Positions 5,230 through 29,422 of a stretch of DNA of 32,000 bases are shown piece by piece (position 1 is the stretch's first letter; every line of letters starts with the position of its first letter). Both the position numbers and the translations under genes were made by a program. The notes beneath the pieces are model-generated. The model ran no database searches. It was not told where the DNA came from and was given only the letters and a program-made list of their open reading frames with translations. This stretch comes from Methanobacteriota archaeon (GTDB lineage Archaea > Thermoplasmatota > Poseidoniia > Poseidoniales > Poseidoniaceae): assembly GCA_002720095.2 (NCBI GenBank), contig PBGP02000019.1, forward strand, positions 90,177-122,176, read 5' to 3'.

Positions 5230-6267
5230 TCATTCTGCTACAAGAGCAGCAAATGCATATCTAGCGGAAAAAATCTCTACAACACCTGAATTCAAATCTT
5301 CTTGTTTCTCAGGCTCAAACCAGAATTCCCCCCAAGCAACCACACTTCCATCATCTTTCAATGCTGCCAATGCTCTATGAGTAGAAAAAATTTCTACAAC
5401 ACCGGATGATAAATCTTCTGAAACAGCAGAACTATCTCCTCCATAATCCTCATACCCCCAAGTAACCACACTTCCATCATCTTTCAATGCAGCAAATACA
5501 CTTTGACTGGAAAAAATCTCTACAACACCAGATGATAAATCTTCTGAAACAGCAGAACTATCTCCTGAACCACCAGCTCCCCATGTCACAACCGAACCAT
5601 CATCTTTCAATGCAGCAAATGCATATTTAGTCGAAAAAATCTCTACAACACCAGATGATAAATCTTCTGAAACAGCAGAACTATCTCCACCATATGTCGA
5701 ATACCCCCAAGTAATTACTCCATATGTTTGAATAATAGTTTCTGATACTCCAGTTCCAACATTTACAGTAATTACACCACTTTGACCTGCAATTGTTTTA
5801 CCTTTATATTGCAATCCAACTTTGAGTTCACAAGTAGTGCTTTCACCACAGATATCAACACCATTTTCTGATAATGTTATAATTTCATTACCTTGCCAAG
5901 TATCATCTTTAGTTTCTTCATTAATTGCACAGTTATCATCACCATTTGGAGTACATTTGTATGTTTGACCAGAACTCTCATCATACAAAGTGACTGTTAG
6001 AAAAGACCATTGTAAATCATCAGGTCCATTTGTAAAAGACATACGTAAAAGCGTATCACTTTCAGCATTATCACCTGGAGAATAAACCCCTTCTACAGAA
6101 TAAGTGTTAAGTGATCCAGCATCTACTTGATTGCCAGCAAGTTCACTTGCCCACACATACAGAACACCTGAAAGTACAACAGTAATTGCAACCATCAGTA
6201 TTGTAGCTATGACTGGACTTACACCAAATTCATCATCTTCTATTTTTAATGAATATTTCTTTCTCAT
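5230..6267 (-). CDS. Archaeal type IV pilin-like (DUF1628-type class III signal peptide) protein with C-terminal RCC1-like (ALKDDGSVVTWG) repeats
   Basis: The N-terminus MRKKYSLKIEDDEFGVSPVIATILMVAITVVLSGVLYVWASEL matches the archaeal pilin/flagellin-type prepilin signal (G|VSPVIATILMVAIT). The C-terminal 160 aa are 41-42-aa units: GGDSSAVSEDLSSGVVEIFSTxxAFAALKDDGSVVTWG. Confidence 0.78.
   Translation of the reverse strand: MRKKYSLKIEDDEFGVSPVIATILMVAITVVLSGVLYVWASELAGNQVDAGSLNTYSVEGVYSPGDNAESDTLLRMSFTNGPDDLQWSFLTVTLYDESSGQTYKCTPNGDDNCAINEETKDDTWQGNEIITLSENGVDICGESTTCELKVGLQYKGKTIAGQSGVITVNVGTGVSETIIQTYGVITWGYSTYGGDSSAVSEDLSSGVVEIFSTKYAFAALKDDGSVVTWGAGGSGDSSAVSEDLSSGVVEIFSSQSVFAALKDDGSVVTWGYEDYGGDSSAVSEDLSSGVVEIFSTHRALAALKDDGSVVAWGEFWFEPEKQEDLNSGVVEIFSARYAFAALVAE
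5233..5721 (-). repeat. Intragenic tandem repeat, period 123-126 bp, about 3.8 units, with long identical cores
   Basis: The 35-nt string gatgataaatcttctgaaacagcagaactatctcc occurs exactly at 5405-5439, 5531-5565 and 5654-5688. The flanking tctacaacacc and ccatcatctttcaatgc are also reiterated. Confidence 0.9.
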
Positions 6268-15260: not shown

Positions 15261-15292
15261 TTAGGTAAACTTCAAAAACAAGACTAATGTAC

Positions 15293-15379
15293 GCTTCAAT
15301 GGGGAGCTTTTGCTGAGAGGTCGCCAATAGGTGACGACCCACAGACCTGATCTGGTTAATGCCAGCGGAGGGAAAAAAT
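15293..15379 (+). promoter_or_regulatory. TPP (THI-box) riboswitch controlling the downstream thiamine ABC importer
   Basis: The conserved core is read directly: GGGGAGC-ttttG-CUGAGA-...-GACCC-acag-ACCUGAUCUGGUUAAUGCCAGCGGAGGGAA (15301-15375). Compare the E. coli thiM aptamer GGGGUGC...CUGAGA...ACCC...ACCUGAUCUGGAUAAUGCCAGCGUAGGGAA. The 3' conserved GGAGGGA doubles as the Shine-Dalgarno for ATG 15380. A TATA-like tttttaatta lies at about 15253-15262. Confidence 0.88.
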
Positions 15380-16492
15380 ATGTACAAAGAGATAAAAAAA
15401 TCGGTAAAAAAAAGAATAAAAGAATCTATTGTAATAGGATTATTTCTGATGATGTCGCTATCTGGATGCATTTCAGAAGATGAATCGAAGGAATTAGTAA
15501 TTGCTACTTACGATATTTATGGTTTAAGCGAAGAAATGATTGAAGAGTTCGAAAATCAAACAGGTATCAGTGTTTCTATGATAAAGCTTGATGATGCAGG
15601 CTCTGTCTTAGATTATTTAATCAAAAATAAAGGAACTAATGATATTGATTTAGCAATCGGTCTTGACAATACATATCTATCAACAGCTATACAACAAGGT
15701 GTCTTAACCAACCACACTGCTAGTAATTTAGGGGAGATATCTCAAGTGGCTCTTGGCCCCTATAACGGGCAACTTGCAGTACCATTTGACATGGGGTATG
15801 TTTGTCTGAATTATGACAATAATTTAGTAGATGGGAAAAACATGTCTGTTCCTACGAGCCTATGGGATCTTACTGAAGAAGAATGGAGAGGAAAAGTTGT
15901 AATTCCATCACCCCAAACTAGTAGTCCTGGTAGAGCTTTCATGTTGGCGACTATGGATTATTTTACATCGGAAACAGATAGAAGCGACACATCCCAATTT
16001 GAATCATGGTGGTCTGCAATGAAAAATAATGATGTTATTATTACTTCTGGATGGACAGAAGCCTATGAAATGTATTATTCAGGTGGATATGGTGAGACAA
16101 CTGAAGGGTATATTGGAAGCGCACATATCACAGTATCATATTGTCATTCTCCAGGTGTAGAGGCTTGGTATAGCGGATCCAATATAACTAAATCATCGTC
16201 ATTGGATATTCCTATGGCGTCATTCTTTCAAGTAGAGTATATCTCCTCAGTTATGGGTGGAGATGTTGAATCATCAGCATTATTCATAGAATATCTTTTG
16301 AGTGAAGAAGTAAATAGTAAGATGCCCGAACAAAACCAAATGTATTCGGTTTTAGAAGGTAACGATTTACCAGAAACCAGTGGTTACTTGTTTCATTCAA
16401 TAATTCCTGAGCAACCCTCTAATCTTTCAATGAGCGAAATTGGTGATAATATAGAGTCCTGGCTTCAATTATGGAATTCAGCTATGATTTAG
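15380..16492 (+). CDS. thiB: Thiamine/TPP ABC transporter substrate-binding lipoprotein (TbpA/ThiB-like)
   Basis: Signal peptide with lipobox LSGC. PBP2 fold family shared by thiamine and Fe3+ binders (VPFDMGYVCLNYDNN, SPQTSSPGRAF, GWTEAYEMYYSGGYGE). Substrate is assigned from the TPP riboswitch directly upstream. The track start at 15359 lies inside the conserved riboswitch core (AAUGCCAGC), so I use the in-frame ATG at 15380. Confidence 0.75.
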   Translation: MYKEIKKSVKKRIKESIVIGLFLMMSLSGCISEDESKELVIATYDIYGLSEEMIEEFENQTGISVSMIKLDDAGSVLDYLIKNKGTNDIDLAIGLDNTYLSTAIQQGVLTNHTASNLGEISQVALGPYNGQLAVPFDMGYVCLNYDNNLVDGKNMSVPTSLWDLTEEEWRGKVVIPSPQTSSPGRAFMLATMDYFTSETDRSDTSQFESWWSAMKNNDVIITSGWTEAYEMYYSGGYGETTEGYIGSAHITVSYCHSPGVEAWYSGSNITKSSSLDIPMASFFQVEYISSVMGGDVESSALFIEYLLSEEVNSKMPEQNQMYSVLEGNDLPETSGYLFHSIIPEQPSNLSMSEIGDNIESWLQLWNSAMI

Positions 16493-16500
16493 GTGATTAA

Positions 16501-18162
16501 TTGAAGAATATTGGCAGCTTTATCGCTGTATTTTTATATTCAGGATTAATTTTTATTCCACTATTTTTAGCACTTAACAGGTTAATAATGGTTACAGGAT
16601 TTTACCCGTCAATTTGGTTTAATTCGCTTGAAAATAACTATATATCTCAAGACATCCTACAGTTTACTTTATTTCAAGCCATTTTTTCGACAATTGTAAC
16701 ATTAATGATTGGTATTCCTATAGCTTGGATGTTAGGAAGGTATAGATGGCCATTAGAATCATTGATAAGAACAGTGTTAACCTTACCATTTGTGATTCCC
16801 TCAATAATTGCTGCAATGGGCATTCTTACGATTATTGGACCACATGGGATTAACATTAGGGCTGACGAAGATACATGGTGGTGGACACTTATAATTGCAC
16901 ATGCTTGGTTTAATATGGCACTTGTAATTAGATTCTGTGAACCTATCTTAACTACATTAGACCCTAGTTTAGAGGAACAATTAAGATTATTACCAAACGG
17001 ACAAACACGAATTTCAAGATTTAGGTATCTATGGGCTCCATTACTCGTCCCCTCAATTACAGCAGCAGCTTGTATGACATTTGTATTTTCATTCACGTCC
17101 TTCGCACTAGTTAGATGGATCACTGTTGGAAATGAGAGTTTGGAGAGTATGATGGCAACAATCTCATCTTCAGCAGGCATCGAAGGATATATGGAATTTA
17201 CCTCAGAAATGGTACTAGGTGCATCAATAATTCAATTTTTAATTTTACTAATTTCATTGTGGATTACATCTATAATTCAAAGAAACAGAAAATCTAAAAT
17301 TCCTCAGGTTAATACAAAGTTTGTGAAAACAAAAAATTCAATGGGCTGGTTAATTATTGTTCCAGCTCTCATTTTCGCACTTTTACCAATAATATCAGTT
17401 TTTTTAGGTTCTTTTAGAATTAGAGAGCCTGTTGAAAACGAAATAATTTTTAGATGGAGTTTTGATGCCTGGGTTGTAGCCTGGCGAGGATCTAACTCTT
17501 TTCCTCCGTTAACTGATGCATTAATAAACTCTATTGGTTACGCAATAATTACTCTTTGTGTCTCATTACCTATCGGATTTTCATTAGCATCTACAATCAG
17601 TAAATTAGAAGAAAATCATAAGTTTTTATCTCAAGTTCTAGATGTTTTTACAATGTTGCCTTTTGCCTTAAGTGCAGCTATGGTCGGATTAGGAGTATTG
17701 CTTGGCATTATAAAATTGGATATTGGCTTTTTACATAATTTCTGGCCGCTTCCAGCACTAGCTCATATTATGTTAACAGTTCCGTTTGTTGTTAGAATTT
17801 TTTTACCAGCCATAAGATCACTAGACCCGATGTATGACGAGAATGCTAAGGTGCTAGGACTTAAACCATGGAAAAGATTCTTCAGTGTTAAATTACCATT
17901 ATTGAAGAGTTCACTTATTATCTCTACAATATTTACATTAGCTATGTCTTTAGGAGAATTTGGAGCATCTTTTGTTGTGGCCCGTAATTCAGATTGGGTT
18001 ACTTTACCATTATTGATAGACTCTTGGAGATCTAAACCAATGAAAGATCCATTTACTGGCCCCGCATCTAACGTAGTAGCAACGGTTTTGATGTTAATAA
18101 CGATTATACTTTTTTTGTTTGCAGAAAGATATAGAACCAATAAGGAAGGAGGTATGTTTTAA
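16501..18162 (+). CDS. thiP: Thiamine ABC transporter permease (ThiP-like, duplicated 6+6 TM)
   Basis: 553 aa, two MetI-like permease halves, about 12 TM helices. TTG start preceded by aGGTGAttaa. Its stop abuts the ATPase start (ttt TAA ATG). Confidence 0.8.
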   Translation: MKNIGSFIAVFLYSGLIFIPLFLALNRLIMVTGFYPSIWFNSLENNYISQDILQFTLFQAIFSTIVTLMIGIPIAWMLGRYRWPLESLIRTVLTLPFVIPSIIAAMGILTIIGPHGINIRADEDTWWWTLIIAHAWFNMALVIRFCEPILTTLDPSLEEQLRLLPNGQTRISRFRYLWAPLLVPSITAAACMTFVFSFTSFALVRWITVGNESLESMMATISSSAGIEGYMEFTSEMVLGASIIQFLILLISLWITSIIQRNRKSKIPQVNTKFVKTKNSMGWLIIVPALIFALLPIISVFLGSFRIREPVENEIIFRWSFDAWVVAWRGSNSFPPLTDALINSIGYAIITLCVSLPIGFSLASTISKLEENHKFLSQVLDVFTMLPFALSAAMVGLGVLLGIIKLDIGFLHNFWPLPALAHIMLTVPFVVRIFLPAIRSLDPMYDENAKVLGLKPWKRFFSVKLPLLKSSLIISTIFTLAMSLGEFGASFVVARNSDWVTLPLLIDSWRSKPMKDPFTGPASNVVATVLMLITIILFLFAERYRTNKEGGMF

Positions 18163-18762
18163 ATGCTAAAATGCAAAGCACTTTCCAAGAAATTTGAGCA
18201 CATATTATTTGATAATCTTGATATATTTCTTGAACCTGGTGAAATATTGGCAATAATTGGGCCTTCAGGATGTGGTAAAACAACATTATTGAGGTGTATA
18301 TGTGGGCTTGAAGAATTAGATTCTGGCTACATAGAATTGAATGGTGAAGAAATTACGAATTTGAAGGTAGAAGAAAGGGGAATAGGTATGATTTTTCAAA
18401 AACCCGTTTTGTATCCTCATTTATCCGTTTCTGGAAATCTGGCCCTTGCTTCAAAAAATAAACACAGTGAAGCCCTTACAGAAGTCGGCTTATCAGGTTT
18501 TGAAGAACGCTCAGTGCACAAACTGTCTGGGGGAGAAGGGCAGAGAGTGGCTCTTGCCAGAGCATTATTAGCCAATCCAAAGGTCTTGTTGCTTGATGAA
18601 CCATTTAGTGCTTTAGATAACAAACTATCACTTAAATTAATTTCTGATGTTAGGAAGTTACTAAAAAAGCGTAATTGCCCAAGTATTTTAGTTACACATA
18701 ACTACAAAGAGGCTGAATTATTTTCGGACAGAATTATTGATATTTCATTAATTGAGAATTGA
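18163..18762 (+). CDS. thiQ: Thiamine ABC transporter ATP-binding protein (ThiQ-like)
   Basis: Walker A GPSGCGKTT, signature LSGGEGQRVALARAL, Walker B LLLDEPFSALD, H-loop LVTHN. Short single-domain ATPase (199 aa). Confidence 0.85.
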   Translation: MLKCKALSKKFEHILFDNLDIFLEPGEILAIIGPSGCGKTTLLRCICGLEELDSGYIELNGEEITNLKVEERGIGMIFQKPVLYPHLSVSGNLALASKNKHSEALTEVGLSGFEERSVHKLSGGEGQRVALARALLANPKVLLLDEPFSALDNKLSLKLISDVRKLLKKRNCPSILVTHNYKEAELFSDRIIDISLIEN

Positions 18763-18826
18763 ATTTATTTAGTAATTTAATTTTTCGAATACAAGTCTTT
18801 ATGAGTTAATTAAATGTGAATATATC

Positions 18827-19657
18827 ATGCGAAGCGTGAAATTTGTTATAAAAACTCACACTGTATTTGAAGGTGGCGGGTTTAAAGTTCGAAGACCTGT
18901 TTCTATGGGCAGTCTCATGAGCCCTTTTTTACTCCTTGATGAAATGGGTCCAGCAGATTATGGGCCAGGTGAAGCAATAGGCGCACCATGGCACCCTCAT
19001 CGGGGTTTTGAAACTGTAACTTACATGTTAGCTGGTCAAATGCAGCACGAGGATAGTGCTGGAAATAAAGGAGACTTACTTCCAGGAGATGTCCAATGGA
19101 TGACGGCAGGCAGAGGTATCATTCATTCAGAGGAACCACATCCCGATTTTAAAAGAAAAGGTGGTCTAATGCACGGATTTCAAATCTGGATTAATTTACC
19201 AGCGAAACATAAAATGATGCCACCACGTTATCAAGAGATTCCAGCTTCTGAATCCCCTATGATTGAAAAAAATGGAGTTTGGGCAAGAGTTATCGCAGGT
19301 GAGTGTTTAGGAATTAGATCCAAGATTGATACTATGGTTCCTATAGAATATATTCACGTCAGAATGAATAACAACTCGGTTTTAGAAAAAGAAATTGAGT
19401 CATCCTTAAACACAATGATTTACGTTTTTGGAGGGCAAATTACTATTCAAGATAAAATTATTAAAGACGGAGAATTAGCACTTTTATCAGAGGGACCAAA
19501 GTTAAAAATAAAAACAAAAGACTCATCTGAATTTTTAATACTTGCAGGCCCTGAATTGAATGAACCTATAGCACGTCATGGACCTTTCGTAATGAACACT
19601 AGAGAAGAAATACAACAAGCATTTACTGATTTTAGAAATGGAACATTTGCTAACTGA
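18827..19657 (+). CDS. Pirin-family bicupin protein (quercetin 2,3-dioxygenase-like)
   Basis: Classic pirin N-terminal cupin: FKVRRP...APWHPHRGFETVTYMLAGQMQHEDSAGNKGDLLPGDVQWMTAGRGIIHSE. C-terminal GPFVMNTREEIQQAFTDFRNG. Confidence 0.9.
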   Translation: MRSVKFVIKTHTVFEGGGFKVRRPVSMGSLMSPFLLLDEMGPADYGPGEAIGAPWHPHRGFETVTYMLAGQMQHEDSAGNKGDLLPGDVQWMTAGRGIIHSEEPHPDFKRKGGLMHGFQIWINLPAKHKMMPPRYQEIPASESPMIEKNGVWARVIAGECLGIRSKIDTMVPIEYIHVRMNNNSVLEKEIESSLNTMIYVFGGQITIQDKIIKDGELALLSEGPKLKIKTKDSSEFLILAGPELNEPIARHGPFVMNTREEIQQAFTDFRNGTFAN

Positions 19658-19684
19658 GAAACAAAAATTAGATTAATTATACAA

Positions 19685-20551
19685 TTAGGAAGTGGATAGT
19701 AATTTCCTTGACTTTTTCACAAGATTAATTATTTCGACTCTTAAATCATCAGCTTTTATTCTTTTTTCAAAGGGGGTATACGTCATGCGTTCAGGATTAT
19801 TTGAATGCATCATAATTCCTCCACAATCTAAATCGATCATCTTTACAGTTTTCGGAGAGAAATCATGAATGCCTTGACATATGGTAATCATTGCATCTTC
19901 ATGGTCATCATTCATATGTTCTATCGATCCAACTTTAATATTTTGAATCTCAATATCAGAAATTTCCTTTTCCACTTCATCACCATTTATCCAACAGATT
20001 TTACCGAATCCAGCTATATACCTTACTTTTTCTATATTTTTCATTTTCCAAAAATAGAAATTATGTGTTTCTAAATAACTTTTAGCGCTAGGAACTCTTT
20101 GGCAATATCTAACCAACATTCTTTCTTCTTCTTCTTCAGATACGTGTATACATTTTTCTAGTTCACTCATATTGAACTTATCTTTTCTAGATGGAGTAAT
20201 CACACGTTCAAATTCTCCAAAAATACTTGCCCTCCAATTTGATTGAGGATCCCCTTTTGGATTTGGATGAGAGATAAATAAACAGGATTTAGAGTTAGTC
20301 AGTATATTTTTAGTATGTGCAGCTATTTCGGCAATCAGAATGTAGGGCATACCGTCACTGCTTATAGCGAATGGTACTATTGATCCATAAGGAAAACCTT
20401 CTAATTCTGAATGTGATGATATAGTGCATAAGGTTCCGTGATGAACATCTTCTAGCCATTGAGCGACATTTGATGCGGGGTTTTCATTTTTATTAGCTAG
20501 TCTTTCAGCTAAAACTGAACTATTAGAATCTGACGTATTACTTTCAGACAT
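19685..20551 (-). CDS. PNPOx-like split-barrel + DUF2470 protein (HugZ/HOZ-type haem-utilisation / haem oxygenase-like)
   Basis: N-terminal split-barrel segment HHGTLCTISSHSELEGFPYGSIVPFAISSDGMPYILIAEIAAHTKNIL. C-terminal DUF2470-type motif IEHMNDDHEDAMITICQG. Recognised from memory of COG0748-like proteins, not searched. Confidence 0.68.
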   Translation of the reverse strand: MSESNTSDSNSSVLAERLANKNENPASNVAQWLEDVHHGTLCTISSHSELEGFPYGSIVPFAISSDGMPYILIAEIAAHTKNILTNSKSCLFISHPNPKGDPQSNWRASIFGEFERVITPSRKDKFNMSELEKCIHVSEEEEERMLVRYCQRVPSAKSYLETHNFYFWKMKNIEKVRYIAGFGKICWINGDEVEKEISDIEIQNIKVGSIEHMNDDHEDAMITICQGIHDFSPKTVKMIDLDCGGIMMHSNNPERMTYTPFEKRIKADDLRVEIINLVKKSRKLLSTS

Positions 20552-20602
20552 AATCCTGTGGTATAATGGTTATCTTATAAAACCATCATCTTAAGTTATG
20601 AT

Positions 20603-21067
20603 TTAGATATTACCGAGTTTCTCTAATGTGGATTTTATCCAGTTTTCGCACTCGTCATCATCATCATAATCTACATCACAATCAATTCTATCATTTACCC
20701 TTTTTCCACCTTTCTGCTCGATTATTGTATCCCACTGTTTTCCAGACTCACAGAAAAATTCGTATGCAGTATCGCCGAGGGCAAGGACTGCAAAATTTAC
20801 ATTGTCCATTGACCCTTCATCCGCTTCACAGACATCTTCATACAAATCTTCAGCATTTGTTGGTTGGTCTCCTTCTCCCCAAGTGCTACAGCAAATTAGC
20901 AGTCTTTTCGAGTTAGAGATATCTTCAACAGACACATCATCCATGTCCATAATCTTAGCATCTAGTCCATAATCCCCTGCCAAGCTTTTAGCATCATCAG
21001 CCAAAGCTTCAGAATTACCTGTTTCCGTTCCAAAAATTATCAATATTTCTTTATCACTCATGTTCAT
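20603..21067 (-). CDS. Flavodoxin (CysJ/short-chain flavodoxin-like FMN domain)
   Basis: FMN phosphate-binding loop ILIIFGTETGNSEALADDA, then STWGEGDQP and FAVLALGDTAYEFFC. Its start overlaps the upstream ATPase stop (ATGA, 21064-21067). Confidence 0.8.
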   Translation of the reverse strand: MNMSDKEILIIFGTETGNSEALADDAKSLAGDYGLDAKIMDMDDVSVEDISNSKRLLICCSTWGEGDQPTNAEDLYEDVCEADEGSMDNVNFAVLALGDTAYEFFCESGKQWDTIIEQKGGKRVNDRIDCDVDYDDDDECENWIKSTLEKLGNI

Positions 21068-21927
21068 TCCTCCTCTTCTTTCCTTTTATTTTTTTGTTTA
21101 ATTTCGTCTTTAATTATTATTCTCATAGACTCGTATTCTGTTCTTTTTTCTACTACACAACTCACTCCATACACTGTAGCAATATTCTCTTCATTTAACA
21201 CTTCTTCTGGTGTTCCCTCTCCAATTAATTCGTTTTGATGGAGGAGTAAAATTCTATCTGCAAAACGTGCGGCAATGTTAATATCATGAATAGCAATTAT
21301 TGCAGATTTATCTTTACCTTCTCGTATTAATTTCTTTATATTTTTCATTACAACAATTTGATTTTTTAAATCTAAATCGCTTGTAGGTTCATCCATTAGT
21401 AATAACTTCGAATCTTGAGCAACAGCTTTTGCAATGATTACTCTCTGTCTTTCCCCGCCTGATAATTTGTTAAAACTTCTGAAAGCAAAATCCTCTAATT
21501 TCAAAAATTTTAATGTATTCGACACTATTTCCCTGTCATTTTCTGAAACTCTCCAATTAATATGCGGTCTTCTTCCAAGAAGAACAACATCAAAAACATC
21601 CATTGAAAACTGAGTCAATACGGATTGTGGGACATAAGATATGTTTTTAGCCAACTCAACTAAATTTAAATCGTTAATATCTTTGTTTAGTAGTTTAATA
21701 AATCCTTTTTCAGGTTTAAGAATTCTATTTACGCATTTTAGCATTGTTGACTTACCTGCGCCATTGATGCCTAAGACAGCCACGAGTTCATTTTTTGGAA
21801 TTGTGAAGTTAATTCCATTCAAAACTTTATTTTCACCCCAACTAAAATGTAAATTTTCTACTGATAACAATTCGTCATTATCAATTATTGAGTAATTTTG
21901 AGCGTAATTTTTATAATTATTCATCAA
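21064..21927 (-). CDS. ABC transporter ATP-binding protein, iron-chelate/haem/B12 type (FepC/HmuV/BtuD-like)
   Basis: Walker A GINGAGKST, signature LSGGERQRVIIAKAV, Walker B LLLMDEPTSDLD, H-loop AIHDIN. Lys/Glu-rich C-terminal tail. 4-nt overlap with the permease stop. Confidence 0.9.
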   Translation of the reverse strand: MMNNYKNYAQNYSIIDNDELLSVENLHFSWGENKVLNGINFTIPKNELVAVLGINGAGKSTMLKCVNRILKPEKGFIKLLNKDINDLNLVELAKNISYVPQSVLTQFSMDVFDVVLLGRRPHINWRVSENDREIVSNTLKFLKLEDFAFRSFNKLSGGERQRVIIAKAVAQDSKLLLMDEPTSDLDLKNQIVVMKNIKKLIREGKDKSAIIAIHDINIAARFADRILLLHQNELIGEGTPEEVLNEENIATVYGVSCVVEKRTEYESMRIIIKDEIKQKNKRKEEEE

Positions 21928-23087
21928 TACTTCCTCCTCTTCTGAAGTAGTAGATACATGAAAAATGGCCCTCCTATTATTGATAACATTATTCCAACAG
22001 GAATAACTATTGGAGCGAATAATGTTCTTCCAAGAGTATCAGCGAATAACATCAGCAACGAACCGAATACAGCAGAACATGGTATCAACTTTCTGTAATC
22101 ATTACCCACAATCAATCTACTCATGTGCGGCGCCGCTAATCCTAAGAAACCAATCAAACCCGTAAAAGAAATTATTATCGAGGTCATAAATGCGGACAAT
22201 ATTAGAATTTTTTTACGAGTTACTATAGGATCTACTCCTGTTGATATAGCAAAATCATCACCCCCTAAAGAGAGTGAATTCAAGTCCCATGCCCATTTCA
22301 TTGCATTTGGCATAAGTAGAATAATAATTATTGATATACTAATTGATTGAATAAGTGATGTTCTAGCTAGGCTTCCAAAAGACCAGTGAGTTAGTTGTGA
22401 TAATTGGGAGTCGCTGGCAAAATACGTCATTGTTGAAACAATAGCACCGCAAATGAATGTAATTGCTATTCCCACCAAAATGTAAGATTCTGCAGAAACA
22501 GATCTGTAATTACCTAATTTAATGATTAAGAACACAACAAATAGAGAGAAAATAAAAGCATTTGTAATAATTACAGTTTCTGCGCCTGTAAATGGTATTG
22601 GCGGAATATCCAATGCAACTGAAAAGATAGCCATAGAGATCATATTAACTGGATAAATTATTATATTGAGAATTAAATTCCATAAAAAATCTATAATTAT
22701 TCCAATAGGCTCACTAATTGAAAATCCAATAATGATGCCCAAAGCAGCGCCTAGAGCAGCACCAGAAGCAACTCCTAAAGTCAGTGGAGATACTAACGGA
22801 TTTCCTAGACTGCCCTGCATTAATGCACCTGCGGTGGCCAATGCTGCACCCCCTACGATTGCTATAATAACCCTAGGAAGACGTATTCTCCAAATTATTG
22901 AAGATTGTATGTCATTCGATTGATCAATTCCTAGAACAATTTTAAAAGTCGAAAAAAAACCCAAATTTTCAGATGACCCTACTCCCATTGAGGTTATAGC
23001 TAAGATTAAAGTAACTAATGAGAGAGCCAAAATTAATAAAATCTGAAATTTAGATTTTTTAATATGTATCTCTGAAATACTTTCCAT
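21924..23087 (-). CDS. FecCD-family ABC permease (iron-siderophore/haem/cobalamin importer)
   Basis: Signature RLPRVIIAIVGGAALATAGALMQGSLGNPLVSPLTLGVASGAALGAAL. About 9-10 TM helices. C-terminal GGPFFMYLL. Confidence 0.9.
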   Translation of the reverse strand: MESISEIHIKKSKFQILLILALSLVTLILAITSMGVGSSENLGFFSTFKIVLGIDQSNDIQSSIIWRIRLPRVIIAIVGGAALATAGALMQGSLGNPLVSPLTLGVASGAALGAALGIIIGFSISEPIGIIIDFLWNLILNIIIYPVNMISMAIFSVALDIPPIPFTGAETVIITNAFIFSLFVVFLIIKLGNYRSVSAESYILVGIAITFICGAIVSTMTYFASDSQLSQLTHWSFGSLARTSLIQSISISIIIILLMPNAMKWAWDLNSLSLGGDDFAISTGVDPIVTRKKILILSAFMTSIIISFTGLIGFLGLAAPHMSRLIVGNDYRKLIPCSAVFGSLLMLFADTLGRTLFAPIVIPVGIMLSIIGGPFFMYLLLQKRRKY

Positions 23088-24200
23088 CTAATCAACAACC
23101 ATAGTTTTACATACGAATTTACCCTTTTTGTCAATATTGTGATATTTACTAAAATAATCAATTAGGTAAGCTTCCGCATCTAAATCATCGAATAATTCCG
23201 GATGTAGCATTTTTGCGAGGGTTGGTAATCCATGGATCATCATTGGACCTGCGAACTCTCCAGACATGATCATCATAGAGTTATTTTTTACAGCATTCAT
23301 ATGTTCAAATCCAACTCTTCCCCTAATAAAATCAAGATGTTCATCACAACTAATTCCCTCATTATCGTATGAATTAAATCCAATATCAAAAGTAATACCA
23401 TCAAACATCATATAATCTGGATTTTGAGATATTATTTTTTCCATGTCTACATGAGTCGTATGTCCTGGTAAATCTTTAAAAACATTAATTCCACCTGCCC
23501 TTTCGATAATATCTGTCCACTGAGAAGTGCCTGTCAAGACAACAGGATCTCTAGTAAGTGACGCATGATGTTCCATCACTATTCGTGGTCTTTCAGAATA
23601 ATTTAGTAATGATATTCTTTTTGAGATATCATTTTCAATTCTTTCAAATTCATCAAATAGAGCATCTCTTTCAATTTCTTTCCCAAAAAGTTTTGCCGTT
23701 ACATTTATTTCATCTCTTAAAGAATCATATTTATAAAAATCTAAAGCAATAACCTTTATTCCAATAGGTTCTAATTTCATTCTAATTGCTTTAGTATCTA
23801 CCATTCCATTGGTGGCAAAAACAATGTATACTTCTGGTCTAGTATCAATCAATGCTTCAAAGTCAATTTCAGAATGCGCAGATCTTTGGATTTGTTTTTT
23901 GTCTACATATTCAGGCCATAATTCTTCATCATAGAAATCTCCTGAAACTCCAACGACCACAGAGGGGTCAACACCTAGCATTCTCATTACAGTTGCGGCA
24001 TAAGTATTTGCTATAGCTATTCTTTTCGGTTCTTCACTAAAATTGTGCCAGACTTCATTTGAATCTTGAACAGAGATTGAATACTCTGGAATAATTGGTG
24101 AAACATTACTATCATTTACATCATTGAAAAAATATTGTATTGTGGTAACTGATATAAGTAGAATAAAAATTTGCAATCCAATAATAATTTTTTTATCCAT
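23088..24200 (-). CDS. Membrane-anchored periplasmic-binding-protein (FecB/BtuF/HmuT class, cluster A) substrate-binding protein
   Basis: N-terminal TM anchor. RIAIANTYAATVMRMLGVDPSVVVGVSG and PEVYIVFA match the PBP_2 (PF01497-like) pattern. Its stop abuts the permease start with no gap. Its start overlaps the upstream gene by 8 nt. Confidence 0.75.
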   Translation of the reverse strand: MDKKIIIGLQIFILLISVTTIQYFFNDVNDSNVSPIIPEYSISVQDSNEVWHNFSEEPKRIAIANTYAATVMRMLGVDPSVVVGVSGDFYDEELWPEYVDKKQIQRSAHSEIDFEALIDTRPEVYIVFATNGMVDTKAIRMKLEPIGIKVIALDFYKYDSLRDEINVTAKLFGKEIERDALFDEFERIENDISKRISLLNYSERPRIVMEHHASLTRDPVVLTGTSQWTDIIERAGGINVFKDLPGHTTHVDMEKIISQNPDYMMFDGITFDIGFNSYDNEGISCDEHLDFIRGRVGFEHMNAVKNNSMMIMSGEFAGPMMIHGLPTLAKMLHPELFDDLDAEAYLIDYFSKYHNIDKKGKFVCKTMVVD

Positions 24201-26631
24201 TAAAACCTCTCCTTTTAATTATGGCAGCACTCAAAAGAACAACAGCAGAAAGAGCTAAATTTATTGGAGCAGGAGTTTCTTTGTTTTCAACTAGCGGTGG
24301 TGAAACTACAGGCTCTACATTTACGAAAATTGAGGATGAATATTCGGAAACTTTTCCATTTTCTATAGCCGCTTTGATTTGAATTCTATTCTGTCCGACA
24401 TTTAGTTTATCTATTGTAATTTTATTCTCAGTACCATTATAAACTTCAGTCGTAATTCCATCTCCAAAATAATCAGTGACAATTACTGAATACCATTTGA
24501 TATTTTCAATTTCATCCCAACTTATTTCGATAGATTCATTTTCAAAAATTTTTAGATTAATTCCCTCATTTAATTCAGGTATAGTTTTGATATTGCTAGG
24601 AGGTGGAAGAATATAACCAATATTAACATTCAATGATGTACTTCTAATTGGGTTATCATTTCTAAAAGCCATCAAAAAATATGTAAACTCACCATCGTTT
24701 CTGTCTCTTATTTCAAATGATAAATCCTTACCTTCGTATATTAATACATCATTTTCAAATAATTGATAAAACTCAGTTCCTGGAAATACTCCCCATTCTA
24801 AAGTATAGTCTTTGACAGAGAAATCTCCTCCTTCTGTAATAAATTGAGGTGATGTTGGAACATCATATGAAGTTAGTTCGGAAATCACGGAATCACTATG
24901 TGAACCAGGTAACCTATCGATTATTTTCACCCAATTTCTTACCGTTTCGTTATACCATAATTCCCACGATATCACATCATCCTTGAGATCAATAATTTGA
25001 AAATATGTGGTTGAAAAATTCCCGGCGACAGTTTCAATCATCACATTTTTGTATATATTCACGATATTTTGTGTATCATCATAACCGTTTGGATGCCCAG
25101 GTACTCCAATAATATTAGTTCGGTTAAAGTGCATATTTAAACTACTATCAGAGGTCAACAGGTCTGCATTAGTTCCGTTCAAATTAGTGAAATCCCACCC
25201 CATAGTTCCTTCAACATAATATGATGAGGAGGAAGGAGCATCAGCCCAATATGTCTTAATATTCAACAAATTTTCTGAATCAACCCAACGATATGCTTTT
25301 TCTCCGTCTTCATAACTATCATCGGAAACTCTGAGTAGAAAACATTCTTTATTCATACCGAATGAATCTTTTATTATTTCTGAACCTACCGCAGTATATG
25401 TTCGATTATGTTGGTATTCAGGAGTGTGTCTTATGTGATAGTCCCAACTCATTCCGACAGACCACCAGTCCTCATTTCTTTGTTCTTGTATCACAATCAG
25501 AATAAATGGTTGGTAACTTGAAGTAGTTCCATTTCGATTTTTAGCTATGACATCAAATTCATAAGTACCGGGTTTATCTGTCCAAAAATAGTAAAATTCA
25601 CTTTGTGTTTTCTGTATTGAAACGCCGTCTACAAACAATTCATATTCGTCTGTATATTGTCCTCCATTCCATTTAATTTGGAAACCATCCATAATTGGAA
25701 TAGTTTGAACAGAGGATTCGAAGGTTACATTACCAGGTAAATTAATATCTATAGTAGAACTTACGTTTAACCACCCATCACATTCATTAATGAATTCATT
25801 GATTGGTTCTACAATTTCTTCTCCATTCTGTTGATAAGTAATGAGTTCTGTATTTCCAACTGTCAAATTTTGCAGTAGATAGAACCCATCTGAATTTGTT
25901 ATTGCATTTTCAACACCATTCGAGACAGATACCCCTGGAAGTGGAGCACCATTAGGATCCTTGACGTATCCATATTTACTCTGTGAACCTTTGAAGACTT
26001 CAAAATTATTTGGGGTGTCCCCGCTCATTTTAAAGTGAATATCATTACAAGTAGAGTCTCCATTTCCACCAAAAGTTGTTATTAACGAGTAATACTCCCC
26101 AATTTCATAAACACCGAATTCGGCTCTTCCTTGATCCCAAAAATTGGCATTCTCAATTAAAACACCTGTAGAATCTGTAATTTTAGAACAATCTTCATCA
26201 TCTCCTAGTTCACAATTATCATTGACATTCTGAAGGTATGGATCCCCATTTTCATCAAAGAGTTTAATCGTCACCCAATTCATTCCGACATACCAATCTA
26301 ATTCAATGTCAGATTCTACCAGAATTTTTCTGTAGGAAACGGTATGACCATCATTCATAAAATATGCACGAATTGTATGTTCTCCTGCTGTTACTCCTTC
26401 AAATGTATATGTTCCGTAGTCAGGAGAGGATACATTATCGTTAGACCAAGAGGATTTCATAGAGTCTACTTTTATTGATGTGAGATTGGCTATTTCTCCA
26501 GTTTTTGTGTATATATTTCCGTAAATAGTAAAAGTTTCCTCAATTGTTTCATTCGTAGAATTTTCTGTAGCGTTAATTGGTAATAAAACCATCATAATTA
26601 GAAAGTATGCAATGAATATTCTGCTCTTCAT
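24193..26631 (-). CDS. Large secreted, C-terminally anchored surface protein (CarboxypepD_reg-like + Fn3-like modules + unassigned central domain); first gene of the ABC importer operon
   Basis: Signal peptide MKSRIFIAYFLIMMVLLPINA. A CarboxypepD_reg-like segment GYVKDPNGAPLPGVSVSNGVENAITNSDGFYLLQNL. At least three Fn3-like segments (for example FQIKWNGGQYTDEYELFVDG, YTLEWGVFPGTEFYQLFEND, IEISWDEIENIKWYSVIV). Many N-x-S/T sequons. C-terminal TM plus KRR tail. Confidence 0.7.
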   Translation of the reverse strand: MKSRIFIAYFLIMMVLLPINATENSTNETIEETFTIYGNIYTKTGEIANLTSIKVDSMKSSWSNDNVSSPDYGTYTFEGVTAGEHTIRAYFMNDGHTVSYRKILVESDIELDWYVGMNWVTIKLFDENGDPYLQNVNDNCELGDDEDCSKITDSTGVLIENANFWDQGRAEFGVYEIGEYYSLITTFGGNGDSTCNDIHFKMSGDTPNNFEVFKGSQSKYGYVKDPNGAPLPGVSVSNGVENAITNSDGFYLLQNLTVGNTELITYQQNGEEIVEPINEFINECDGWLNVSSTIDINLPGNVTFESSVQTIPIMDGFQIKWNGGQYTDEYELFVDGVSIQKTQSEFYYFWTDKPGTYEFDVIAKNRNGTTSSYQPFILIVIQEQRNEDWWSVGMSWDYHIRHTPEYQHNRTYTAVGSEIIKDSFGMNKECFLLRVSDDSYEDGEKAYRWVDSENLLNIKTYWADAPSSSSYYVEGTMGWDFTNLNGTNADLLTSDSSLNMHFNRTNIIGVPGHPNGYDDTQNIVNIYKNVMIETVAGNFSTTYFQIIDLKDDVISWELWYNETVRNWVKIIDRLPGSHSDSVISELTSYDVPTSPQFITEGGDFSVKDYTLEWGVFPGTEFYQLFENDVLIYEGKDLSFEIRDRNDGEFTYFLMAFRNDNPIRSTSLNVNIGYILPPPSNIKTIPELNEGINLKIFENESIEISWDEIENIKWYSVIVTDYFGDGITTEVYNGTENKITIDKLNVGQNRIQIKAAIENGKVSEYSSSIFVNVEPVVSPPLVENKETPAPINLALSAVVLLSAAIIKRRGFNG

Positions 26632-26654
26632 GAACAGTCGTGTAGCAACTGATA

Positions 26655-26670
26655 TTTAGGTTAACCTAAA
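26655..26670. promoter_or_regulatory. Perfect 16-bp palindrome TTTAGGTTAACCTAAA: candidate metalloregulator (DtxR/IdeR-like) operator overlapping the putative TATA box of the 26631 operon
   Basis: The sequence is its own reverse complement (verified by hand). It lies 24-39 nt upstream of ATG 26631 (minus strand). Minus-strand TAAATAT (26652-26658) is a TATA-like element centred about 24 nt from the ATG, which suggests a leaderless or near-leaderless mRNA. Half-sites TTAGGTTA/TAACCTAA equal the outer halves of the DtxR/IdeR consensus TTAGGTTAGGCTAACCTAA. Confidence 0.45.
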
Positions 26671-26743
26671 ACCTGTTAAATCCATATAGTCCTTGTCTAC
26701 TTAATACCAAAAAAATAAGAAATATTTTAGCGACCCCACCGCA

Positions 26744-29422
26744 ATGACTAGAATGACAATCGGGGTTTTACTAGTCATTATTATCAATATTTTTACGATT
26801 TTGCCAATTTTTGAGGAGGCAAAAGGTCTTTCGATATCTACAGTATCTAAACAGGATGAACTCAATTGTAGTCAACATAATTTGACACTAACAAATGAAA
26901 TTCACGTTGATAATCAATTAGGCAATAATAATTATTCTGGTACAAAAGAGTGCCCTTTTAGATCTGTTGATGAAGCGTTAAAAGTATCTAGAGACGGGGA
27001 TACTATTATTCTTCATGAGGGTGTTTATTATGAAGAGATTTTTATTGAAAATTTTGAAAATTTAACTATACGTAAAGCCGAAAATAATAGAGTGGTATTT
27101 GATGGAACCTCTAGTATCATTGATGATTTAAATGGTACTTGGATTCATTCTTCGAATGAAATTTACGAGGTTGAAATAGATCAGAAAGGCTGGCAAGTCT
27201 TCGTAGATTACAAAGAACAGGTACCCGCACGGTGGCCAAATGCAAACTTCACAGATTTTTCGGTATTTGACCAAACAAACAATTGGGCCAAAGGTACAAT
27301 TGATGAAGGAGGTAATTACATCAATGGAGAATTGCAAGATAATGGGAAATTAAGCTCAAGTGGCATTGATCCAGTTGGAGCAATAGCAATTCTAAATGTG
27401 GGCTCTTTCAAGACTTGGAGTAGAACCATTAATGATTACGACTCCACTAATAACACTTTGTTATATGATCAAGTCCCAAATTGGAAGACGAAACACCATC
27501 ATTACTTTTTGGAGGGAAAGAGAGAATTGATTGATGTTCCAGGTGAATGGTGGTTCGATAGTAGTGTTAACAAATTGCATATGAAATTTGAAAATGGAAC
27601 AAATCCAAATAATTTAGACATTAGAGTTAAAACCCAAGCTTATGCATTTAACATCACTAACAGCAACAATATTTCGATAGAAGGGTTAGAATTCTTCGGT
27701 ACTACGTTCAATATTAACCATTGTAACGGTTGCGTTGTCAGAGATTCTGATTTTATGTATCCTAGTACTTCCAAAAGAGGTTTAGGAATTGTGGGAGAAG
27801 ATGTGGAAGAAAGATGGGTTTCGAGAATGGACTTCTGCACTAACAGTTTGATAGACAACTCTTCATTTGCTTACACAGACGGCTCTGCACTTGAATTTCA
27901 TGGGGCCTCCTTGAAGTCTCACAATAATACAGTAAACAATACGCATTTTGAATATATTGATTGGTCATCTTCTGATTTAATTGGATTGATGGTGACAATA
28001 TACGATGGAGGAAAAGATAACACTTTTTCTAATAATACGGTTAAAAATACAGGGGCATCATCAACACTTAGCATTGGAGACTCACCAAAAATATTTTTTA
28101 ATAATATTTCAAATACGGGCTTGATTCAAAGCGATGGGGCAGTAGTTCAAATGATGATGTTAGAACAACAAGGCGCGCAAATAGCGTATAATTGGATTCA
28201 TAACACTGAAAAATATGGAATTAGAATGGATGGACCAGCGGGCGGAATCAACATAGGAAGAAACGCAACTATACATCATAACGTATTATGGAATATAAAA
28301 ACAGGAATAATGGCTAAGGGTGACTATCATGAGATTAGCTATAATACTGTATTTGGTGGGGGTTTAGACTTAGGTAAAAATGATATAATTATTTTATTTG
28401 AGAACGGAGAAGGAAATGAAAACTCATCAACGAATAATAATGCCGCAGATAAAATATCTGCTCATAGATCGAAGTCATACGAAGAACATCCTGTCAAAGG
28501 ATATTTTGTCGATAACTATAATGGGTATCAAGAGGAATTAGGCGAGGTGGAAAATTACTTATTAGATCCAGATAATTATGATTTTAGACCGATAAATAAC
28601 TCACCACTGGATAATCTAAGTGCAGGAGCATATCAGGCATCAGATCCAGACCCATGGGAACCAGGCGCCGAGAGAAAATGGATTATAATGCAATCGTTAT
28701 ATAAAGGATGTACAAATATTTCAGCGAAAAATTACGATTATTTGGCAGGAATACACAATCATGAGTGTATGTTTGATGTTGAAATTCAACCCGAACCTGA
28801 GCCTGAACCTGACGGGCATTGTTTAATCATAGACAATCTAACTGTCAACGAGACCTATTTTGTTACCCTTGACCTTGTGAATACATGTGATAAAAGCATA
28901 CACTATCCAGGAGTTAATGCCACAGCAGATCACCTTCTGGTCAGTGGATTTCCGGACTATGTCGAGTGGTATTACCTAATATTCCCCCACACAACCTACA
29001 ACCACTCTTGGCAACTTTATTTTGATGAGGCGATTTCTAATGGAACTGAGATTTCGTTTAACTTTGAAGCAGCCATCTTGAGTTGTGAAGAAGAAGGTTA
29101 TTGGCACGATTGTCCAGATTCGATACTTGAGTATACATTTACATTAATTTGGGTTGATAATGAAACGGAAGAAGATTCAAAAACAGAACAGTTTATTGAA
29201 TTCCATAATGAAACAGATGATTTAGATAATGATGATAATGATGGAATACCAAATGAAAAATTCGATCTTAAAAAATTTTATCAAGATTTTTGTTGTACAA
29301 TTGGTTGTGGATTATTAATGGGTTCACCATTTCTACTATGGCCTAAGAAGGAAAAATCATTGAATAAAGTAGAGGTTCCCCCAAAATCTATAATTCTTGA
29401 AAACTTACACGAGAAAAAATAA
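26744..29422 (+). CDS. Secreted right-handed parallel beta-helix (pectate-lyase-fold) protein with Cys-rich C-terminal module and TM anchor
   Basis: Signal/anchor MTRMTIGVLLVIIINIFTILPIF. DUF1565/beta-helix-like start CPFRSVDEALKVSRDGDTIILHEGVYYEEIFIENFENLTIRK. Repeated N-x-hydrophobic turns (ITNSNNISIEGLEF, NNTVKNTGAS, NNISNTGLIQ, HHNVLWNIKTGI). PEPEPEPD linker at about 28790-28812. Hydrophobic C-terminal segment followed by KKEK. Confidence 0.7.
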   Translation: MTRMTIGVLLVIIINIFTILPIFEEAKGLSISTVSKQDELNCSQHNLTLTNEIHVDNQLGNNNYSGTKECPFRSVDEALKVSRDGDTIILHEGVYYEEIFIENFENLTIRKAENNRVVFDGTSSIIDDLNGTWIHSSNEIYEVEIDQKGWQVFVDYKEQVPARWPNANFTDFSVFDQTNNWAKGTIDEGGNYINGELQDNGKLSSSGIDPVGAIAILNVGSFKTWSRTINDYDSTNNTLLYDQVPNWKTKHHHYFLEGKRELIDVPGEWWFDSSVNKLHMKFENGTNPNNLDIRVKTQAYAFNITNSNNISIEGLEFFGTTFNINHCNGCVVRDSDFMYPSTSKRGLGIVGEDVEERWVSRMDFCTNSLIDNSSFAYTDGSALEFHGASLKSHNNTVNNTHFEYIDWSSSDLIGLMVTIYDGGKDNTFSNNTVKNTGASSTLSIGDSPKIFFNNISNTGLIQSDGAVVQMMMLEQQGAQIAYNWIHNTEKYGIRMDGPAGGINIGRNATIHHNVLWNIKTGIMAKGDYHEISYNTVFGGGLDLGKNDIIILFENGEGNENSSTNNNAADKISAHRSKSYEEHPVKGYFVDNYNGYQEELGEVENYLLDPDNYDFRPINNSPLDNLSAGAYQASDPDPWEPGAERKWIIMQSLYKGCTNISAKNYDYLAGIHNHECMFDVEIQPEPEPEPDGHCLIIDNLTVNETYFVTLDLVNTCDKSIHYPGVNATADHLLVSGFPDYVEWYYLIFPHTTYNHSWQLYFDEAISNGTEISFNFEAAILSCEEEGYWHDCPDSILEYTFTLIWVDNETEEDSKTEQFIEFHNETDDLDNDDNDGIPNEKFDLKKFYQDFCCTIGCGLLMGSPFLLWPKKEKSLNKVEVPPKSIILENLHEKK

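Follow-up and report, generated by a model that had tools for sequence, protein, structure and literature searches.

A conserved six-gene operon of Poseidoniales archaea encoding a HOZ-like protein and a type II ABC importer in an iron-acquisition context

The six-gene array and its conservation

The window studied here is a stretch of 32 000 nucleotides (positions 90 177 to 122 176 of contig PBGP02000019.1, assembly GCA_002720095.2) from a Methanobacteriota archaeon of the family Poseidoniaceae, within the Poseidoniales or Marine Group II (MGII), and has a G+C content of about 0.34. Its minus strand carries six consecutive open reading frames (ORFs), which encode, from 5' to 3', a surface protein of 812 amino acids (aa), a substrate-binding protein (SBP), a FecCD permease, an ATP-binding cassette (ABC) ATPase, a flavodoxin and a HOZ-like protein (Table 1). 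A preliminary description of the locus had placed the same six genes on this strand and had read them as a candidate operon for the capture, import and degradation of haem (or of an iron chelate or corrinoid); all ORF coordinates turn out to be identical.

Reading the junctions from the sequence confirmed the 8-nt overlap between the 812-aa and SBP genes (ATGGATAA), the abutment of the SBP and permease genes (TAG followed directly by ATG) and the gap of 51 nt between the flavodoxin and HOZ-like genes. Two ATGA overlaps had also been proposed. That between the ATPase and flavodoxin genes is a true one, whereas the permease/ATPase junction reads tatTGATGaat, in which the TGA stop codon shares 4 nt with the TTG chosen as start by the ORF finder; the real start of the ATPase gene is more likely the ATG at 21924, which would overlap the permease stop by 1 nt. 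GGAGG-like Shine–Dalgarno motifs are recognized ahead of three internal starts, namely those of the SBP, ATPase and flavodoxin genes. In the spacer preceding the HOZ-like gene, the sequence TTTATAA is found about 28 nt 5' of the ATG, inside an inverted repeat (ATGGTT...AACCAT), and this gene may own an internal promoter besides being transcribed by read-through. The T-rich spacer on its 3' side is the likely end of the operon and would include the terminator.

Table 1. Positions of the operon genes and associated features in the window, and of Fea1-domain genes in other MGII loci
Feature	Position	Strand	Basis
812-aa surface protein gene	24193-26631	-	ORF listing
370-aa SBP gene	23088-24200	-	ORF listing, PF01497
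387-aa FecCD permease gene	21924-23087	-	ORF listing, PF01032
287-aa ABC ATPase gene (from TTG start)	21064-21927	-	ORF listing, PF00005
154-aa flavodoxin gene	20603-21067	-	ORF listing, PF00258
288-aa HOZ-like gene	19685-20551	-	ORF listing, PF13883 + PF10615
Divergent intergenic region, 112 nt, presumed operon promoter	26632-26743	-	Sequence read; archaeal promoter geometry
Perfect 14-bp palindrome TTAGGTTAACCTAA, candidate metal(iron)-responsive operator	26656-26669	.	Sequence read
Flavodoxin/HOZ spacer, 51 nt, possible internal HOZ promoter	20552-20602	-	Sequence read; promoter inferred
Convergent spacer after HOZ stop, 27 nt, T-rich run aatttttgtttc	19658-19684	-	Sequence read
Fea1 genes	L004 2696-4552, L008 2723-4000, L009 3512-4630, L012 2817-4085, L059 279-1454, L064 2-742, L071 2538-3818

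An alignment of HOZ-like proteins was scanned against one genome per GTDB species, which yielded 80 loci (designated here by L numbers), and homologues of the window proteins were placed in them by tblastn; presence was counted only over the loci with enough upstream DNA to assess the gene in question. The order 812-aa protein, SBP, permease, ATPase, (flavodoxin), HOZ was found again in 25 MGII loci from species representatives, and the six-gene arrangement is therefore far beyond chance. The 812-aa and SBP genes are each present in 19 of 19 assessable loci, the permease gene in 21 of 21, the ATPase gene in 24 of 24 and the flavodoxin gene in 17 of 25. The operon was seen in both MGIIa and MGIIb, the closest loci being those of Poseidoniaceae/MGIIa metagenome-assembled genomes (MAGs; Tully 2019, Supplementary Data). 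Two clades of HOZ-like proteins occupy the same slot, one 44–67% and the other 30–36% identical to the window protein; loci with the divergent clade include those of the MGIIb MAGs UBA19, UBA182, UBA558, UBA40 and UBA552. The MAGs UBA596 and SP3024 are MGIIa. The other operon proteins are 50–70% identical across the MGII loci, except for the more divergent 812-aa protein (34–49%). The gene order that had been read as an operon thus holds across MGIIa and MGIIb, in 25 loci and with both HOZ clades.

In many MGII loci, genes for an ABC ATPase and a BPD_transp_1 permease follow the HOZ-like gene (e.g. L004, 10963–12706). In L008 (10874–14915) this pair is succeeded by a convergent GSDH-like gene and by a gene for a transferrin-like binding protein with its own copy of the operator motif described below. 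The HOZ-like gene in many MGII loci is thus situated between two different iron-type importers.

Proteins encoded by the operon

Pfam searches verified all of the earlier domain calls (Peripla_BP_2, FecCD, ABC_tran, flavodoxin, and split barrel plus DUF2470), and none of the six proteins reached an NCBIfam equivalog cut-off. The 288-aa protein contains a CREG/PNPOx-like split barrel (PF13883, residues 27–192, 66.5 bits against a cut-off of 27) and a DRI/DUF2470 domain (PF10615, residues 210–275, 30 bits against 22), and PF01243 is annotated on many of its homologues. Comparison of its profile with the PDB identified PA4388 (2arz, E = 1e-39) and AtHOZ1 (6m09, 1e-30) as the nearest solved relatives, followed by PtHOZ1B (9bl1, 1.5e-27) and the haem-binding and haem-degrading protein MSMEG_6519 (5bnc, 1.2e-26). 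Weaker matches were obtained with ChuZ (3swj, 5.3e-8), Dri1 (8gdw, 3.6e-6) and HugZ (3gas, 7.6e-5), all confined to the DRI/DUF2470 part, and with the single-domain HutZ (3tgv, 5.6e-4) via the split barrel. Residues H79, R177, H212 and H217, which are invariant in 20 homologues and kept in both MGII HOZ clades, correspond in the 9bl1 alignment to H90, Q163, H201 and H206 of PtHOZ1B. Of these, H90 is equivalent to AtHOZ1 H135 and HugZ H136, the histidine that touches the haem propionates, and H201 and H206 overlay two histidines that hold the 'extra' haem of ChuZ (PMC11602992).

The barrel-then-DRI architecture is that of the HOZ-like proteins and the reverse of that of HugZ (Grosjean et al. 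2024; PMC11602992). HugZ, ChuZ and HutZ belong to the same superfamily as the 288-aa protein and have the DRI domain and the propionate-contacting histidine in common with it, but the scores of the latter against the equivalog models are far below the cut-offs (58.9 versus 240 for HugZ, TIGR04109, through the DRI part only; 30.3 versus 225 for HutZ, TIGR04110). The HugZ score refutes membership of the HugZ equivalog, and the domain order is reversed; the protein, whose gene the preliminary description had called HugZ/DUF2470-like, is HOZ-like and not HugZ-like. Based on the profile E-values, the domain order and the conserved haem-site residues, we regard membership in the HOZ-like family of haem-binding split-barrel proteins as firm; the protein is predicted to be cytoplasmic and to bind or degrade haem. 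All biochemically characterised HOZ, HugZ and DRI proteins bind haem, and some degrade it (PMC11602992); several members of the HOZ/DRI family are non-enzymatic haem binders or sensors. Bacterial HOZ relatives are found in Pseudoalteromonas, Alteromonas and marine Myxococcota; outside the archaea, identity to the closest relatives is about 40%. The bacterial genes are placed straight after FecCD permease and ATPase genes.

The SBP, permease and ATPase, encoded by adjacent or overlapping genes, have the domains of a type II (FecCD/BtuCD-like) importer (PF01497, 82 bits; PF01032, 252.9 bits; PF00005, 109.7 bits). The SBP is a class III Peripla_BP_2 protein with an N-terminal membrane anchor, and its family is strongly conserved (mean column identity of 63%), with two invariant cysteines and nine invariant histidines. 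Many of these are in the loop motifs SAHSEIDFE, MEHHASLTRDP, PGHTTHVDME and GPMMIHG, which follow beta strands of both lobes in the secondary structure of the AlphaFold2 (AF2) model. This model (predicted local distance difference test score, pLDDT, 81.4) is most similar in fold to YiuA of Yersinia (6b2x, 9hrj, 9hrp, 9if3 and 9ht5; TM-score 0.75–0.79, about 20% identity), the matched structures being from Y. ruckeri with Fe-DHB-Arg-Ser, Fe or Fe-NTA and from Y. pestis in the apo form; next come uncharacterised 'iron' binders, MolA and Ni-(His)2 CeuE. YiuABC is likewise a type II importer and gives the best SBP match in both sequence and fold. However, its identity is low, the invariant histidine loops of the MGII protein (EHHASL and GHTTH) align to non-histidine residues in YiuA, and the Yiu system is without HOZ, flavodoxin and surface-protein partners. 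The ligand of the SBP is not transferable by homology.

Among the NCBIfam models, the permease scored best with BtuC (178 versus a cut-off of 334) and the ATPase with the haem ABC ATPase HmuV (NF010068, 227.5 versus 261); the corrinoid ATPase and BtuD models gave 210 versus 537 and 148 versus 281, respectively. The ATPases of the bacterial HOZ-linked loci L030 and L018 pass the HmuV cut-off (284.5 and 325.3 versus 261). Locus L030, from Pseudoalteromonas rubra, encodes a TonB-dependent haem/haemoglobin receptor whose score exceeds the curated cut-off (342 versus 324 bits), together with an SBP, a FecCD permease, the HmuV ATPase and a HOZ-like protein. These bacterial loci resemble the MGII operon in the domain order and conserved histidines of HOZ, in the position of its gene after those for the FecCD permease and ATPase, and in their iron-assimilation context. 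In contrast, MGII are archaea without an outer membrane or TonB receptor, the MGII ATPase and SBP are not of the HmuV and HmuT types, and the 812-aa protein and the flavodoxin are MGII additions, neither of which was detected in the bacterial HOZ loci. The flavodoxin is a short-chain protein that matches PF00258 over the full profile (1–143 of 143; 112.5 bits), and its translation contains the flavin mononucleotide phosphate loop GTETGNSE.

The sole Pfam match in the 812-aa protein is a CarboxypepD_reg-like module. Its AF2 model (pLDDT 75.8) is all-beta, with helices at residues 2–15 (N-terminal signal or transmembrane segment) and 789–810 (C-terminal transmembrane segment); between them lie a string of beta-sandwiches (Ig/FN3/CarboxypepD_reg-like), a central domain and two FN3-like domains. 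The central domain, which is all-beta and about 200 residues long (approximately residues 383–600), contains the majority of the invariant positions, among them H501, H513, H578 and many tryptophans and tyrosines. Foldseek searches of the PDB with the whole protein returned only generic Ig/FN3 ectodomains and S-layer-like proteins (TM-score about 0.1–0.2), and the profile of the central domain had no PDB sequence match at E ≤ 10. Among 1.84 billion representative proteins this domain has 35 matches, nearly all in the same family of proteins of about 780 aa; the handful outside it have HYR, PKD or W_rich_C repeats, which give no hint of function. The protein has 16 N-X-S/T sequons, which are not proof of glycosylation. 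It is a lineage-restricted, surface-anchored protein whose gene always leads, or nearly leads, the operon, and it is reasonable to regard it as a candidate extracellular capture, receptor or scaffold component.

The preliminary description had considered a surface protein at the head of such an operon foreign to the described bacterial haem systems. This does not hold for Gram-positive bacteria, in which surface relays combine a surface receptor with a haem ABC importer (NEAT proteins of the Isd system with IsdEF, and HtaA/B with HmuTUV). The logic is the same, namely a beta-sandwich surface receptor with a Peripla_BP_2/FecCD importer and a cytoplasmic haem degrader. However, no NEAT or HtaA (CR) domain was detected in the 812-aa protein, and the degraders of those relays are IsdG and HmuO, not HOZ.

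A palindromic motif shared with iron genes

The palindrome TTAGGTTAACCTAA has a single exact match in the window. It ends 24 nt 5' of the ATG of the 812-aa gene and runs into the TATA-like sequence AAATAT. The TATA-like element is situated about 24–30 nt before the ATG, and this distance suggests a leaderless or short-leader operon transcript. When three mismatches were allowed, one extra site was found in the window (at 15261, versus 2.77 expected), which is no better than chance. Compared with the DtxR consensus 5'-TTAGGTTAGCCTAACCTAA-3', a 19-bp palindrome (PMC7762939), TTAGGTTAACCTAA agrees with the first 14 nt at all positions but one. It shares the TTAGG/CCTAA half-sites with the DtxR/IdeR iron box and, like the boxes of iron genes, it lies over a promoter element; it differs in its length (14 versus 19 bp) and in its archaeal host. 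No gene for a metal-responsive regulator was found within the window.

The motif TTAGG-N4-CCTAA has 26 sites in 427 kb of MGII loci, versus 0.26 expected under a first-order Markov model (an enrichment of about 100-fold), and 1 site in 856 kb of bacterial loci. It is found immediately 5' of the orthologous 812-aa protein gene in L001, L002, L007, L031 and L035, and 5' of the Fea1-domain gene directly preceding the 812-aa protein gene in L004, L012 and L071. It also lies 5' of genes for transferrin-like/phosphonate-bd binding proteins (L008, L010, L013 and L055) and for M28-ZIP fusion transporters (L031, L033 and L035). Its positions include 3190 in L001, 4024 in L002, 2632 and 2666 in L004, 4091 and 4125 in L007, 2755 in L012, 3306 in L031, 2593 in L035, and 2478 and 2523 in L071.

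Genes with a Fea1 domain (PF07692, 'low iron-inducible periplasmic protein') directly precede the 812-aa protein gene in seven MGII loci (Table 1). This domain characterizes the algal low-iron-inducible/phytotransferrin family and occurs here in archaeal proteins; no report of archaeal Fea1 homologues was found in the literature searched. The algal iron-starvation set (FEA1/ISIP2a phytotransferrin and flavodoxin) thus has counterparts in MGII, in which the Fea1 genes share the motif and a flavodoxin is co-encoded. However, the present window is without a Fea1 gene, and the eukaryotic phytotransferrin system works via endocytosis, not ABC import.

Given that the motif is so strongly enriched and lies ahead of genes for Fea1, transferrin-like and ZIP proteins as well as ahead of the operon, we consider it well supported that the operon belongs to an MGII iron-acquisition island under a candidate metal-responsive, DtxR-like operator, and we propose that TTAGG-N4-CCTAA marks a candidate MGII iron regulon. 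The iron context of the operon, assumed in the preliminary description, is thereby independently backed by the iron-box-like operator and the Fea1 and transferrin-like neighbours.

Two further observations concern the loci with this motif. The transporter genes in L031 (998–3301), L033 (5884–8202) and L035 (9275–11593), all from MGIIb, encode proteins of about 770 aa in which a peptidase M28 is fused to a ZIP transporter, an unusual architecture. The same motif occurs in near-identical contexts in L050 (12373 and 17356) and L052 (11547), one of which is labelled Methanobacteriota archaeon and the other Acidimicrobiaceae bacterium; this likeness may represent a mis-binned contig or a shared element.

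Cargo of the importer and setting of the operon

We interpret the operon as an iron-starvation-regulated uptake and utilisation system of MGII, with haem as its most likely cargo, an interpretation that we hold with middling confidence. The palindrome that overlaps the TATA-like element would be the binding site of a metal-responsive, probably DtxR-type repressor, which would leave it when iron is scarce. The translationally coupled 812-aa protein and membrane-anchored SBP would then capture an iron-bearing chelate outside the cell, and the FecCD permease and ATPase, as members of the type II ABC importer family, would import it. In the cytoplasm, the HOZ-like protein would bind the cargo and either cleave haem for its iron, which we favour, or hold it and pass it on, and the flavodoxin would give electrons at no cost in iron–sulphur clusters. 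Haem is placed first because the characterised HOZ, HugZ and DRI proteins bind it and because the loci of the bacterial relatives studied here are true haem loci; counting degradation for iron and cofactor salvage together, we consider it about as likely as not.

Several results weigh against haem. In the comparison with the PDB, the SBP profile matched YiuA (2.5e-24) and MolA (4e-12) ahead of the haem binder IsdE (1e-7), and PhuT, ShuT, HmuT and BtuF were absent at E < 0.01. The score against the IsdE model TIGR03659 was 32.6 versus a cut-off of 298.65, the haem binders PhuT and RhuT appeared only at ranks 33 and 41 among the fold neighbours, and BtuF gave E-values of only 0.016–0.95 with phmmer. 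The SBP evidence thus makes a classical binder of haem or B12 less likely, though haem is still compatible with it. All nine MGII ATPases tested, among them that of the window and seven orthologues, score below the HmuV cut-off (197–239 versus 261), and they are tied across the HmuV, corrinoid, FecE and F420-0 models. Because these ATPases fail the HmuV cut-off, and because the bacterial binding proteins barely resemble the MGII SBP (22.6% identity over 226 aa at best), the MGII importer is, judged by its sequences, not an orthologue of HmuTUV, and the HOZ gene alone would tie it to haem.

Even this tie is loosened by the settings in which HOZ occurs. Bacterial HOZ-like genes also adjoin non-haem iron systems (PMC11602992), and the MGII HOZ gene is placed between the present importer and a transferrin-like/BPD importer of the Fe3+ type, so that HOZ need not report the cargo of this transporter. 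In the 812-aa protein, no haem-binding domain (including NEAT and HtaA-CR) was found by Pfam, fold or PDB profile searches. The flavodoxin gene is missing from 8 of the 25 MGII loci, and its product is accessory; it may be a co-regulated, iron-sparing substitute for ferredoxin and not a dedicated reductant of HOZ. Of the chain of haem import, reduction and cleavage that had been proposed, the iron role and the HOZ family have therefore stood, as has the co-encoding of the flavodoxin; a dedicated partnership of the flavodoxin has not, and neither has haem as cargo beyond the evidence of HOZ, the SBP being YiuA-like and the ATPase being under the HmuV cut-off.

The import of a non-haem iron chelate (a siderophore, a siderophore fragment or a small Fe(III) complex) is a lesser but real possibility. 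HOZ would then be a haem or iron sensor, a regulator or an iron-release step, and the flavodoxin a ferric-chelate reductant or a general iron-sparing carrier. The SBP is nearest, in fold and profile, to YiuA bound to Fe-DHB-Arg-Ser or Fe-NTA, but the distance from YiuA and the replacement of the invariant histidines noted above reduce the force of this likeness. The ATPase and permease are not HmuV and HmuU equivalogs, the neighbours of the Fea1 and transferrin-like kinds are proteins for non-haem Fe(III), and HOZ-like proteins are reported to be encoded beside siderophore-interacting proteins and to be fused to FepB/FhuD-like domains (PMC11602992). On the other hand, haem binding is common to all HOZ, HugZ and DRI proteins that have been characterised biochemically, and siderophore production is not known for MGII.

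Haem might also be imported as a cofactor to be salvaged, with HOZ as a cytoplasmic haem chaperone or buffer, which would be relevant chiefly to MGIIb. Haem pathways are reported to be deficient in MG-IIb and MG-III (Kim et al., bioRxiv 10.1101/2021.01.11.426183), the five MGIIb MAGs named above carry the operon, and the non-enzymatic haem binders and sensors of the HOZ/DRI family would suit such a role. However, conservation of the operon is just as strong in MGIIa, the iron box and the Fea1, transferrin and ZIP context indicate iron nutrition, and the sequences of the transporter components are not of the haem type; we consider salvage as the main role improbable.

Uptake of a complex of another metal (Ni, Co, Zn, Mn or Mo) by the histidine-rich SBP, under an operator for a DtxR/MntR-type regulator of that metal, appears very improbable. 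The nine invariant histidines in the predicted cleft loops, the presence of Ni-(His)2 CeuE and the molybdate binder MolA among the structural neighbours, the operator motif shared by the ZIP transporter, and the fact that the DtxR family includes Mn sensors all fit it, but Fea1, the transferrin-like proteins, the flavodoxin and HOZ indicate iron or haem. Cobalamin or corrinoid uptake with the flavodoxin as cobalt reductant, which the preliminary description had kept as a live alternative, is scarcely credible: BtuC is the best sub-threshold model for the permease and the corrinoid ATPase model scores about as well as HmuV, but BtuC, BtuD and the corrinoid ATPase all remain far from their cut-offs, BtuF is not among the SBP profile matches, the sole Rfam match in the window is a tRNA-Leu, with no cobalamin riboswitch, the operator motif is common to iron genes, and HOZ is without a known corrinoid role.

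A more far-reaching version of the haem interpretation would join all of these elements, and is speculative and unlikely to hold in full. The operon would be the long-missing haem/iron machinery of MGII, as the most abundant planktonic archaea of the ocean, in which the 812-aa protein represents a new archaeal class of surface receptor for haem or iron chelates that hands its ligand to the histidine-rich SBP. HOZ and a dedicated flavodoxin would form a self-contained haem-processing pair independent of iron–sulphur proteins, haem would be supplied to MGIIb, which are predicted to be deficient in its biosynthesis, and the island with Fea1, transferrin-like and ZIP genes under the DtxR-like 14-bp box would be the iron regulon of MGII.

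The operon is flanked by genes of other kinds. On the plus strand, the genes of another ABC importer and, after them, a pirin gene occupy positions 15359–19657; the importer includes a fused double permease of 553 aa and a short ATPase of 199 aa. Its SBP passes the cut-off of TIGR01254 (thiamine, ThiB/SfuA subfamily), and the importer/pirin block is inserted between the HOZ and UbiA-family genes relative to the closest loci, L001 and L002. Because of its ThiB/SfuA-type SBP and its absence from these two loci, the block was rejected as a part of the operon and is a neighbour only. The UbiA-family gene (13635–15260, plus strand), which is conserved beside HOZ in L001 and L002, encodes a fusion of 541 aa in which an EF-hand pair and a PAS domain are joined to a prenyltransferase. 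The latter is MenA-like by NCBIfam, although below the cut-offs, and its identification as a haem O synthase was rejected; the fusion may be a calcium- or signal-regulated membrane prenyltransferase.

On the other side, divergent from the operon across the palindrome-bearing region of 112 nt, a plus-strand gene (26744–29422) encodes a predicted surface protein of 892 aa with a weak DUF1565/beta-helix match, 27 N-X-S/T sequons, a cysteine-rich tail and a C-terminal hydrophobic segment. Because its gene adjoins the operon in no loci besides the window, L001 and L002, it was likewise rejected as an operon member. Farther away, a minus-strand gene (5230–6267) encodes a protein of 345 aa with an archaeal type IV pilin-like N-terminus and RCC1-like repeats, and adjoins a gene for a 675-aa LVIVD-repeat protein (6325–8352, minus strand); both are probably surface proteins as well, with no relation to the operon.

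A targeted search of the literature found no archaeal haem-uptake system, in line with the earlier statement that no archaeal equivalent has been characterised, and the main comparative-genomic and transcriptomic literature on MGII does not discuss iron or haem uptake. That bacterial HOZ-like genes are linked to transport genes of the FecCD, BPD and transferrin types has already been described, in a study that mentions neither archaea nor flavodoxin nor a surface protein of the 812-aa type (PMC11602992). The elements new to this operon are the 812-aa surface protein, the histidine-rich YiuA-like SBP, the flavodoxin encoded alongside, and the operator resembling an iron box, with its candidate regulon of Fea1, transferrin-like and ZIP genes.

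The uncultured MGII archaea rank with the most abundant heterotrophs of the surface ocean, and the operon gives a first testable lead on their iron supply. The conserved, apparently iron-regulated island provides clonable targets, namely the SBP, HOZ, the flavodoxin, the 812-aa protein and the operator. It also opens a way of asking whether MGIIb, with their deficient haem pathways, need haem as a growth factor, a question that bears on their cultivation. Furthermore, the operator motif offers a handle for defining an archaeal iron regulon and for reading the iron stress of MGII from metatranscriptomes.

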